A stretch of 64,000 bases of DNA, from assembly GCF_016026235.1 (NCBI RefSeq), contig NZ_CP065614.1; one strand, written 5' to 3'. The position numbers are program-made. Source of the DNA: Escherichia coli. Lineage in GTDB: Bacteria > Pseudomonadota > Gammaproteobacteria > Enterobacterales > Enterobacteriaceae. This document shows positions 54,001 through 57,000 of the stretch, one piece after another. The stretch's first letter is position 1, and every line of letters starts with the position of its first letter.

Positions 54001-57000
54001 TTTATAAATGAGATCTGCCATGCCACTGATTGCTTTGATCTTGCAGGCCGGGATTACAAAATAGATCCTGATTTACTGAGAGCAATATCATGGAAAGAAT
54101 CCCGTTACCGGGTTAATGCCATCGGTATTAATCCGGTAACGGGATATGGCAGCGGACTGATGCAGGTAGATTCCCAGCATTTTAACGAACTGGCCCGCTA
54201 TGGAATTAAGCCGGAACATCTGACAACAGATCCCTGCATGAACATTTATACCGGTGCTTATTATCTGGCAATAGCCTTTAAAAAATGGGGCGTCTCCTGG
54301 GAGGCCGTTGGTGCATACAATGCCGGATTCAGGAAGACCGAACGCCAGAACCAGAGACGTCTTGCCTACGCATCAGATGTTTACCGGATTTATACCGGGA
54401 TAAAAAGCAGTAAAGGTATCCGAATTCCGACCACGAAGAAATCACTTCCGGAAATTAACAGCGTGCAGAACAATTAATCTTACAGACATTGTCAGATACC
54501 GGTTATGCCGCAAAAGCGGCATGGAAGTCCACACACAAAAATATCATATGAGTGACAATACTGACTGGCCGAAGCCCCGCGAAGCGGGAACCCATCTTAT
54601 ATATACCCGGTAACTGCGCAGCCTCCTGCCAGACCATTTTTCGCGGGCACAATATTTACAGACAACCGGAAAGCCAGTTGATGAAATTGAGGTATATCAG
54701 ACGACACAGCGATGCCGAAGAATGATAATATAAGTAAAGCCCCGAAAATTTTTCGGGGCTTTACTTATATTATCATGACTTCCACTTTCTGAACTGTTCG
54801 GCAATCACCCATAACGCCTTGTTGATTCTTATATCACCATCAATACCTGTAATGGCTCTTGTCCTGGTATTTTTCCCGGAGGCACTTCGCCACGATAATC
54901 CACCTTTTATCATATTCTCCTGAACCCGCTGCCAGGTTGTCCAGAGATCGTTCTGTTTATCCTCCCGACGACGGGGAGTAATTATTTGTTCAGGCGTCAC
55001 TGGCGTTTTATTTTCATCTTCATACCTGACCATCAGTGCAGCTCTGCCAAATAAATGTTGCTCGTCACTGTTAAGATGAATTTCTTTCATCGCCTCCATA
55101 TTTTCAGTGACCTTATCAAAGACACCGAGCACTTCATACGCTCCCTCGATAACCTGCCCGACAATATCACCTTTATGTGGAACGCGAATTTCGCCAAAAT
55201 TATTTCCGCACACCAGGCCATTTGTGCAGACAAAACGAAAAATTCCGGGGATCATCTGATAACTGGATGAACCATCGTGTGAATTAAGCAGGATAATTTC
55301 AGGAACTTCCTGCCCGTTAATATGCCCTTCCCTGCGAAGACGTAACATATGTTTACTGTATTCGCGACGTCCCAAATCACGAACCCGACTCTGACAGGCA
55401 AAGAATGGCTGGAAACCTTCATCACGTAACTTATTGATGATATTGATTGTTGGAATATACGTATAACGTTCACTCCGGGACTCATGTTTATCACCGGAAA
55501 ATACCGAAGGCACGAACTGCATTAATTCATCATCCGTTAAAGGACGTTCACGGCGGATGGAATTATACCGACCAAAACGGGAAGCTAATCGCATAACAGC
55601 TACTCCTTTATGAAAGCATAAATTTAATAAAAAATTTTTCCGCTTAATATCATCCCTCCCGGTTTCCATTAACAAGATTACAACAATCAGGAGGGATATT
55701 CATCACATCCGGTCAGCAGATCGCCCGGATATCGAGGCCGGCACGCTTAATCTGACGCAGGAACTGTTTGAAGTGATCGGCTTCCGCAATGTTGATATGG
55801 CGGAACTGCGTATCCACACCCCGGCTGAGCGCGTAGCTATAGCTGAAGGCCATCTTTTCCGGGTGGCTTTTGCGATATTTTTTCAGCTCAGTCAGGCTGC
55901 TGAATTCCAGGACGTCCCACTCTTCCCCGGTGTTTTTTTTCTTCCCGGCAACAAAAAGCGTGTACGACGCGGTGTTAACGTGGATATTTCGGGTACTCAT
56001 CCTGCTTTCTCCTCTTTCTGGTTTTCAGCCCCCATCATCGGTTGAGTTTCGGGAGCCGCGGTTTTGACGTTTTGCGGGGACCTGCCTTTTGTTCCCTCCG
56101 GTATTCACCATCACCTTTTTGAGAACCTTCGCCGCAAGGGGCATCACTGCCACGGCCGGAAACGACTGTCCGGGGATGTACATTTCCCCCCTGGACTGGC
56201 GGAGACGGTTGTGGCTGTCTTTGCCCCCGGCGACAGGGGCTTAAACAGGTGAATGGCACCGGACACAACAACGGGCAGGGACCCGCCGCAACGACGTGAA
56301 GCGCGGTTTGCGAAACGGCGTTGCGCCTTACATCCCGGCGGCCTTTTGCCGGGATGCAGGGAGCGCAGGCCACGGCGCGACAGAGGCGGCGCGACCGGAA
56401 CGGTCGCTGCAAGCCCGGGGTTTCGCGTCAGGGATGGAAGCGTGCGACTGAAAGTCGCTTCAGATATTGATTTGCGTAGACATATGACAAATCCCGCTAT
56501 TCCGGTAGCGGTAGCCTAATCAGAATGGCGTTGCTGGTAACGGCAAGGTCATAAGCTCTGATGACAACGTACTCTCCCTCAGGAAGGGTAAGTCGAGCCG
56601 TGAGGTGAGACGATCGTCTGCAAGCATCATGCGGACAGGAGGCAAGGCTGATCGGTATGGTTAACACACGTGAACCAGTGATAAAGATCATAACCCTGTA
56701 ACAGGTCAAAGATGCTGATAGACCTGAACTAAAAGGTGTGAGGCTGGTTATCCTATGCTTCCTGAGGATACCCGGACACTAAAGCCTCTGGTCGAGAGCT
56801 GGAACCTAACCCGATCTGTATCTGAAGTGAAAACAGGTAAGCCCGTACTTTTGCCCTCAGGGCAAGCGAACCGTAAGGAACGCTGTTGAAAATGCGGGTA
56901 GAGGAGGATGGAAAAAGCAAATGGCCATCTGTAATGGATGGTATAGGGGTTCAAAATTTGCCCTAACGCGAAAGCGTGCAGACTTCCATCTGGTCTTTAA

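Follow-up and report, generated by a model that had tools for sequence, protein, structure and literature searches.

Introduction

The original Frpo element of the F plasmid, since renamed Frpo1, sits upstream of ygeA and ygeB (Couturier 2023, PMC9849209). Its stem-loop in single-stranded DNA (ssDNA) rebuilds the -35 and -10 boxes, from which the RNA polymerase of the host initiates, and the transcript can also prime complementary-strand synthesis (Masai & Arai 1997, via PMC9849209 and PMC7690428). An A/T-rich stretch upstream of the -35 has been described as an UP element (Samuel 2024, PMC11541004). Deletion of Frpo1 abolished early ygeA expression and reduced transfer from 92% to 25% (Couturier 2023, PMC9849209), 5' RACE in pESBL confirmed where class-1 promoters start transcription (PMC12672017), and in vivo priming was described at ssp1a/ssp1b (bioRxiv 10.64898/2026.01.09.698686). 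The earliest genes to be expressed by a conjugative plasmid after it enters a new host, among them genes for anti-defence and SOS inhibition, are under the control of Frpo-type promoters. In this family, the transferred (T) strand folds on entry into the recipient into a long imperfect hairpin whose apical duplex mimics a sigma-70 promoter. RNA polymerase then transcribes from tip to base along the 5' arm and onward into the downstream genes (ygeA-ygeB in F), complementary-strand synthesis is primed, and conversion to duplex removes the hairpin and turns the promoter off.

Here we analysed a 64,000-nt stretch of Escherichia coli DNA (contig NZ_CP065614.1; the window), in which a first-pass annotation had marked positions 56040-56448 as a GC-rich, hairpin-dense non-coding island of unknown function. 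The last part of that description was mistaken at the level of the family, which has been characterized experimentally. Overall, the island is best explained as the known Frpo1 element in a decayed state, with its tip lost and its promoter probably crippled, a reading to which we assign a probability of about 0.85.

The closest described system is ssiD/Frpo1 of F (ssp1a; Masai & Arai 1997, Couturier 2023), which shares with the island its place upstream of ygeA/ygeB, a near-identical sequence outside one gap and the same T-strand hairpin; the island differs in the absence of the apical 47-48 nt and in a group II intron that splits its distal flank. Frpo2 of F (ssp1b, upstream of ssb) belongs to the same family, with 81% identity over 469 nt, and the sequence that follows the intron in the window is of the Frpo2-flank type, but the ssb-yfjA-yfjB-psiB-psiA-flm operon of Frpo2 is missing from the window. 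The ssi1-3 elements of ColIb-P9 (IncI1) also lie in a leading region and share an apical core with the island (TGTCCGGGG ... CCCCTGGAC) as well as a distal hairpin that resembles its own, whereas their outer hairpin arms are unrelated in sequence and they retain the A/T-rich tip. These ColIb-P9 elements were reportedly described by Bates in 1999 and by Nasim in 2004. The hybrid Frpo repeat of pO111-CRL115 (Venturini 2013, PMC3817090) resembles the island in being the one chimeric repeat left after loss of a module, but has an IncI1 backbone and no reported tip deletion or intron. Finally, the candidates Frpo' 5 and 6, which come from a metagenome of the insect gut (Samuel 2024, Supplementary Table 2), are members of the same family with a tip much shorter than that of F; unlike the island, they keep a GC mini-hairpin (CGCGG-TTTA-CCGCG) and a TTTACC-15-TAGACA pair.

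Results

The GC content of 56040-56448 is 63.8%, compared with 50.1% for the window as a whole, 45% for the left flank and 48.5% for the right flank, and just 0.33% of 409-nt windows match this richness. An inverted-repeat search of the island returned 16 pairs. When both strands were folded as ssDNA, a check that the first-pass annotation had proposed, the + strand reached -122.4 kcal/mol (z = -6.45, equalled by 0 of 100 shuffles) and the - strand -113.5 kcal/mol (z = -5.96). The GC-rich, hairpin-dense character of the island, as first reported, is therefore a real observation that goes beyond chance.

The identity of the island was examined by blastn using F ssiD (D90178), with the sequence taken from the known Frpo/ssi set in Supplementary Table 2 of Samuel 2024 (PMC11541004). 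This revealed an alignment over 56029-56330 (E = 6e-116), and alignments of F Frpo1 with the island were near-identical save for one gap. F ssiE maps to 54472-54660 with 97% identity. More broadly, window positions 53000-56441 correspond to F 67029-63544 at 96%, running through traJ, traM, oriT, the SLT gene, ygeB and ygeA to the end of Frpo1, and the sites that distinguish Frpo1 from Frpo2 are Frpo1-type from 55992 to 56417. The sequence used to locate oriT is one that we take to be the F oriT nick; its exact occurrence on the + strand identifies that strand as the T strand (Table 1). The island lies on this strand 2.15 kb from the nick and enters the recipient ~2.15 kb behind the 5' end. Because ygeA and ygeB both lie on the - strand, the T strand serves as their template. 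The island thus has the setting of a class-1 element, being on the T strand within the leading region and upstream of genes transcribed toward oriT. Taken together, the collinearity with F and the known place of Frpo1 upstream of ygeA/ygeB make the island almost certainly the orthologue of F ssiD/Frpo1. It is probably the sole remaining Frpo repeat of this F-like plasmid; a search of the 64-kb window with F ssiD found no further copies. The Frpo/ssiD-type element is already known, and the island is not a new kind. Of the origins offered at first pass, the one that proposed a leading-region element for single-strand initiation or single-strand promoter function was right by homology, the island aligning end to end with F ssiD/Frpo1 in the comparison with F Frpo/ssi sequences that was suggested there.

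Table 1. Coordinates of the element, its parts and the neighbouring features in the window
Feature	Position	Strand	Evidence
F-type oriT nick-site sequence, GCGTGGGGTGT^GGTGCTTT	53866..53884, nick 53876/53877	+	Single exact match; 0.01 expected by chance
ygeB homologue, DUF932, downstream gene of the Frpo1 operon	54773..55675	-	Pfam DUF932, E = 1.6e-52; collinear with F
ygeA homologue, 95 aa, first gene downstream of the island	55713..56000	-	ORF; collinear with F 64032-64319
Frpo/ssiD-type repeat, class-1 ssDNA promoter element, part proximal to the intron	56026..56441	+	Blastn, alignments
Main imperfect T-strand hairpin: left arm 56046-56175, 12-nt loop 56176-56187, right arm 56188-56316	56046..56316	+	Minimum-free-energy folds
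Junction of the 47-48-nt apical deletion; F has GCAGACCGCAAAATCTTTGCCTGCTTTTGGGCAAAAAGTTTTGCGGG here	56175..56176	+	Alignments
Register-B -10-like TACATT, now in the hairpin loop	56179..56184	+	Hexamer scan; putative assignment
Kept -10-like TGGACT, register A, followed by a 4x4 internal loop (right-arm side 56202-56205), putative start site	56192..56197	+	Conserved core, hexamer scan
Second conserved hairpin, GCGCCTTACATCCCGGC / GCCGGGATGCAGGGAGC	56323..56364	+	Inverted-repeat search
Third small hairpin, GCGACCG-GAA-CGGTCGC, in the distal part of the repeat	56391..56407	+	Sequence and fold
Group II intron, GTGCG...CGAC, 2351 nt, inserted at GGGATGGAAGC^CCGCC	56442..58792	+	Rfam RF02012, 120.9 bits; RF00029, 60.1 bits
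Intron-encoded protein	57046-58719		TIGR04416, 380 bits
Distal continuation of the repeat = 3' exon of the intron	58793..58880	+	Blastn to both F repeats; informative sites
Insertion-site stretch across the intron position, GTCAGGGATGGAAGC^CCGCCAGGGCGG			

The edges of the interval given at first pass required revision. The element begins at ~56026, the last 7 bases of the interval (56442-56448, GTGCGAC) are the intron 5' end, and the same repeat resumes for ~88 nt past the intron. By eye, a ColIb ssi inverted repeat (ACACACCG / GGTGTG) occupies about the position of the second hairpin, between common CCTTAC and CAGGGAGCGC flanks; the automated alignment of the second hairpin with this stem was out of register and the consensus fold had no pairs there.

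Analysis of 72,556 plasmids by megablast revealed Frpo-like sequence in at least 5000, with 2-3 places per record among the matches listed, and these listed matches are located upstream of genes of the leading region, for example ssb; a more sensitive plasmid search found up to 8 repeat places per record. We also folded 15 family members, drawn from F, ColIb-P9, Klebsiella, E. albertii, Serratia, Salmonella and a metagenome. In all 15 the T strand folded 8-20 kcal/mol better than its complement. An alignment of 10 homologues contained compensatory double changes at 17 of the 50 consensus pairs, which indicates that the constraint is structural rather than coding. The island conforms to the class-1 pattern in this respect, its T strand folding into a long imperfect hairpin of conserved structure.

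One difference from F is the gap at the apex. In F, the segment GCAGACCGCAAAATCTTTGCCTGCTTTTGGGCAAAAAGTTTTGCGGG that the island lacks comprises the A/T-rich stem of the tip. Two candidate promoter registers fit the conserved core, A (TTGCGG-17-TGGACT) and B (TGGGCA-17-TGCATT), and a hexamer scan placed the candidate -35 of both within the deleted segment. The deletion turns a former non-template bulge into a 12-nt loop, in which a G-to-A change has created TACATT from the TGCATT of F register B. No -35-like hexamer was found by the hexamer scan at 15-19 nt from TGGACT or TACATT, and, with box positions assigned provisionally, the island retains only -10-like hexamers of the apical -35/-10 arrangement with its A/T-rich stretch. 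The functional Frpo2-acrIIA4 construct (Samuel 2024, PMC11541004) begins at the equivalent of ~56240, which places the promoter within the apical ~70 bp; the construct spans the equivalent of ~56001-56240 and includes the tip that is absent from the island. The deletion therefore probably removes the -35, as judged from conservation, from the A/T-rich UP element that Samuel 2024 describe upstream of the -35, for which the tip is the only A/T-rich stretch, and from the extent of their construct. One further -35 candidate, TTGACG at 56061-56066 in the outer left arm, was rejected: it is absent from ColIb ssi, and its pairing partner is omitted from the functional construct of Samuel 2024. A sigma-70 scan of the island found no conventional duplex-DNA promoter for ygeA. 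On this sequence evidence the island promoter is, in our estimation, somewhat likelier to be crippled or much weakened than to work normally, with the surviving hairpin a relic. The ygeA and ygeB ORFs are intact, and some expression may persist. The 12-nt loop with TACATT could conceivably serve as a pre-melted -10.

Screening of the 72,556 plasmids using a 51-nt probe across the junction identified the tip-deletion allele in only 13: 10 large plasmids (166-294 kb) from E. coli and Shigella boydii, and 3 pO177A2-type plasmids of E. coli from cattle. The best matches were IncFIA plasmids of 166-294 kb from the same two species, which presumably resemble invasion (pINV-type) plasmids. The carriers examined have damaged transfer regions, namely the window itself, the IS-disrupted CFSAN029787 plasmid and pO177A2, in which traN lies directly beside ygeA. 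In the window, an IS4-like transposase (49898-51139) stands in place of traE/K/B/P and an IS91-like transposase (24901-26109) lies within the 3' end of traD.

On the far side of the intron, window positions 58792-60230 match F 58156-56691, just upstream of F Frpo2. The intervening 5.4 kb of F between Frpo1 and Frpo2 (ssb, DUF905, ParB-like, psiB, psiA, hok/flm) has no counterpart in the window, and no ssb, psiB or flm homologue was found anywhere in the 64 kb. Homology to F ends 64 nt upstream of an antirestriction gene and is followed by IS-derived sequence. The informative sites are Frpo1-type up to 56417 and Frpo2-flank-type from 58810, so the crossover falls in an interval that is almost entirely intron. 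Recombination between two intron copies, as the simplest route, is the most likely cause of the ssb-psiB-psiA-flm loss. In pO177A2, which carries the same tip deletion, the type switch occurs at 56206-56219 and there is no intron; the different switch point and the missing intron argue that two lineages lost the module independently. The tip deletion is common to the window and pO177A2 despite this independent loss.

The 5' junction of the intron reads GGAAGC|GTGCG at 56441/56442, with the island adjoining the GUGYG 5' end. Alleles without the intron exist: pO177A2 and both F repeats have the empty site GGGATGGAAGCCCGCC. The GCTTCC at 56757 is a candidate EBS1, complementary to IBS1 GGAAGC, and EBS2 has no confident assignment. 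In E. albertii pESA134_2 the intron follows GGGATGGAAAC in a divergent Frpo*-type element, the same motif in an independent context. A search of 50000-64000 against Rfam (E <= 1) returned the intron, FinP and the traJ 5' UTR, and no family within the island.

Discussion

The identification of the island as Frpo removes one 'unknown' from this plasmid. Of the alternatives that compete with a decayed Frpo1, the first holds that the ssDNA promoter is fully functional, the tip being dispensable and TGGACT or the loop TACATT being used with internal loops and no -35. This would fit a hairpin that keeps ~91% of its stability (-116 kcal/mol compared with -128 kcal/mol for F Frpo1), the intact downstream genes, the short-tipped Frpo' variants found in nature and the G-to-A change that makes the loop hexamer; we nevertheless regard it as unlikely, given that neither -10 candidate has a -35-like hexamer at a suitable distance, that the allele is very rare and that the carriers examined have damaged transfer regions. 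It is less probable again that the island is chiefly the homing site (5' exon) of the intron and that its GC-rich hairpins are features of the intron target. The intron does directly border the island at GGGATGGAAGC^, the site also occurs unoccupied, E. albertii plasmids carry related introns at this motif (in one case within a divergent Frpo*-type element), and the candidate EBS1 pairs with GGAAGC. However, the recognition sequence is limited to the last ~15 nt, the intron is found in only 15 plasmids compared with the at least 5000 that carry the repeat, and the hairpin is conserved with or without it. The proposal in the first-pass annotation that the island is the 5' exon or target of the group II intron is thus literally true for the last few nucleotides and fails for the rest.

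Two further readings were rejected. That the island encodes a small protein, through its 125-aa or 52-aa ORF, seems highly improbable, although annotated CDSs overlap the match in many records: RefSeq lists the 52-aa island ORF as hypothetical, and GenBank records sometimes label the 68-aa version of intact copies 'single-stranded DNA-binding protein'. Pfam gave no match for the 125-, 52-, 62-, 88- and 68-aa ORFs and NCBIfam none for those of 52 and 68 aa; the tip deletion alters the start and length of the 68-aa ORF, the ORF start lies upstream of either predicted transcription start, and the compensatory base-pair changes point to structural constraint. The earlier judgement that there is no convincing ORF therefore holds, the 125-aa ORF (56035-56412, - strand) being real but without a Pfam match. 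Least credible of all is the view of the island as a transposable-element remnant or terminus, which corresponds to the last of the origins put forward at first pass. The repeat is dispersed, and a segment between such repeats has been speculated to be mobile (Venturini 2013, PMC3817090), but the F backbone is collinear on both sides, no mobile-element annotation lies under the matches listed, and homologous recombination accounts for the loss of a copy.

With a decayed Frpo1 as the preferred reading, the loss of the tip, the absence of the ssb-psiB module and the disruption of tra by IS elements together show how the establishment region of a large F-like plasmid has decayed. With tra disrupted in this way, little selection favours the upkeep of an establishment promoter. 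Experimental evolution readily yields deletions in ssi3 or its operon (PMC10104558). A hairpin that lacks its tip could be a natural separation-of-function allele, in which structure is kept and the promoter is lost, and this natural deletion could help to show whether single-strand promoter activity depends on the apical stem. The short-tipped relatives Frpo' 5 and 6 have been proposed as promoters, and a long A/T tip may be dispensable.

The recurring placement of D1D4-7 introns beside Frpo flanks is the only possibly new lead from this analysis. Under this proposal, a D1D4-7 group II intron lineage would home into the conserved distal flank of Frpo-type promoters in the sense of the T strand, and would take advantage, during conjugation, of the single strand as it enters and of the synthesis of its complement. 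The full combination of intron homing to Frpo flanks, use of conjugative ssDNA, loss of the module between intron copies and a tip-less separation-of-function allele is tentative, and we consider it rather doubtful that all of its parts hold together.

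Group II introns and loss of the ssb-psiB-psiA-flm module

Frpo-type repeats are adjoined on several plasmids by group II introns of a single Rfam subclass, D1D4-7, all in the T-strand-sense orientation. The intron site common to the window and the Escherichia albertii plasmids pESA135_1 and pESA134_2 has the insertion motif GGGATGGAA(G/A)C^, which in pESA134_2 lies within a divergent Frpo*-type element. On an IncF plasmid of K. pneumoniae, a related intron lies approximately 130 nt past a third copy of Frpo, at a different sequence. A literature search found no description of an association between D1D4-7 introns and Frpo.

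Frpo1-type sequence gives way to the Frpo2-flank type within 56418-58809, an interval that is intron almost throughout. This placement suggests that the ssb-psiB-psiA-flm module, which lies between Frpo1 and Frpo2 in F, was lost when one intron copy recombined with another.

Hairpin-tip deletion and the ORF within the Frpo hairpin

The tip deletion at window position 56175/56176 is identical in pO177A2, and the Frpo1/Frpo2 crossover points differ between these two lineages. Among the records searched, no plasmid carried the tip deletion alongside a second, intact Frpo copy. Either G-run slippage that has occurred more than once or an allele of long standing may account for the shared deletion.

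An ORF is annotated within the Frpo hairpin, encoding 52 aa in the window and 68 aa in intact Frpo copies; the latter is sometimes named 'single-stranded DNA-binding protein'. Neither version matched Pfam or NCBIfam, and the ORF is therefore probably an annotation artefact.

Insertions in the transfer region and the end of F homology

Two putative transposase ORFs were identified in the transfer region, with the IS4-like and IS91-like labels based on their translations as read and on the annotation, in a related record, of an IS4-like ISEc60. The F-type transfer system of the window is probably not functional. Past the antirestriction gene (59741-60166), homology to F breaks off after 64 nt of upstream sequence, at a site where F carries its class-2 ssDNA promoter (Frpo3/ssp2). 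The region that follows (60230-63421) contains a group II intron piece matched by Rfam, along with putative transposase-gene fragments and two putative ORFs (table).

Features in the window and at related plasmid loci
Feature	Sequence	Position	Strand	Context or basis
IS91-like transposase ORF (putative)	window	24901-26109		interrupting 3' end of traD
IS4-like transposase ORF (putative)	window	49898-51139		in place of traE-traK-traB-traP
52-aa ORF	window	56025-56183	-	RefSeq/GenBank annotation, within Frpo hairpin
68-aa ORF	L001 (intact Frpo copy)	6046-6252	-	RefSeq/GenBank annotation, within Frpo hairpin
Hairpin	window	56323-56364		distal to main Frpo hairpin
Hairpin	window	56391-56407		distal to main Frpo hairpin
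D1D4-7 group II intron	window	56442-58792
D1D4-7 group II intron	L006 (plasmid locus)	3501-5850
D1D4-7 group II intron	L007 (plasmid locus)	3501-5850
D1D4-7 group II intron	L008 (K. pneumoniae IncF plasmid)	29351 to about 31700
Transposase-gene fragments (putative)	window	within 60230-63421		beyond end of F homology; translations as read
Reverse-transcriptase ORF fragment (putative)	window	61128-61484		translation as read
Second group II intron piece, D1D4-2	window	61515-61633		Rfam match
Transposase-like ORF, putative IS630-family	window	62390-63421		translation as read

Other single-strand elements

Manual comparison with the ssi repeats of ColIb-P9 revealed a stem-forming counterpart of the larger distal hairpin at a similar position. 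The window also contains a homologue of ssiE, another single-strand initiation sequence of F (97% over 190 nt; 54472-54660), flanked by the SLT gene and ygeB. On the K. pneumoniae IncF plasmid, an Rfam match to AS-pc01 (antisense to pHK01_035; 89.7 bits; L008 28540-28641) was observed directly beside the third Frpo copy.
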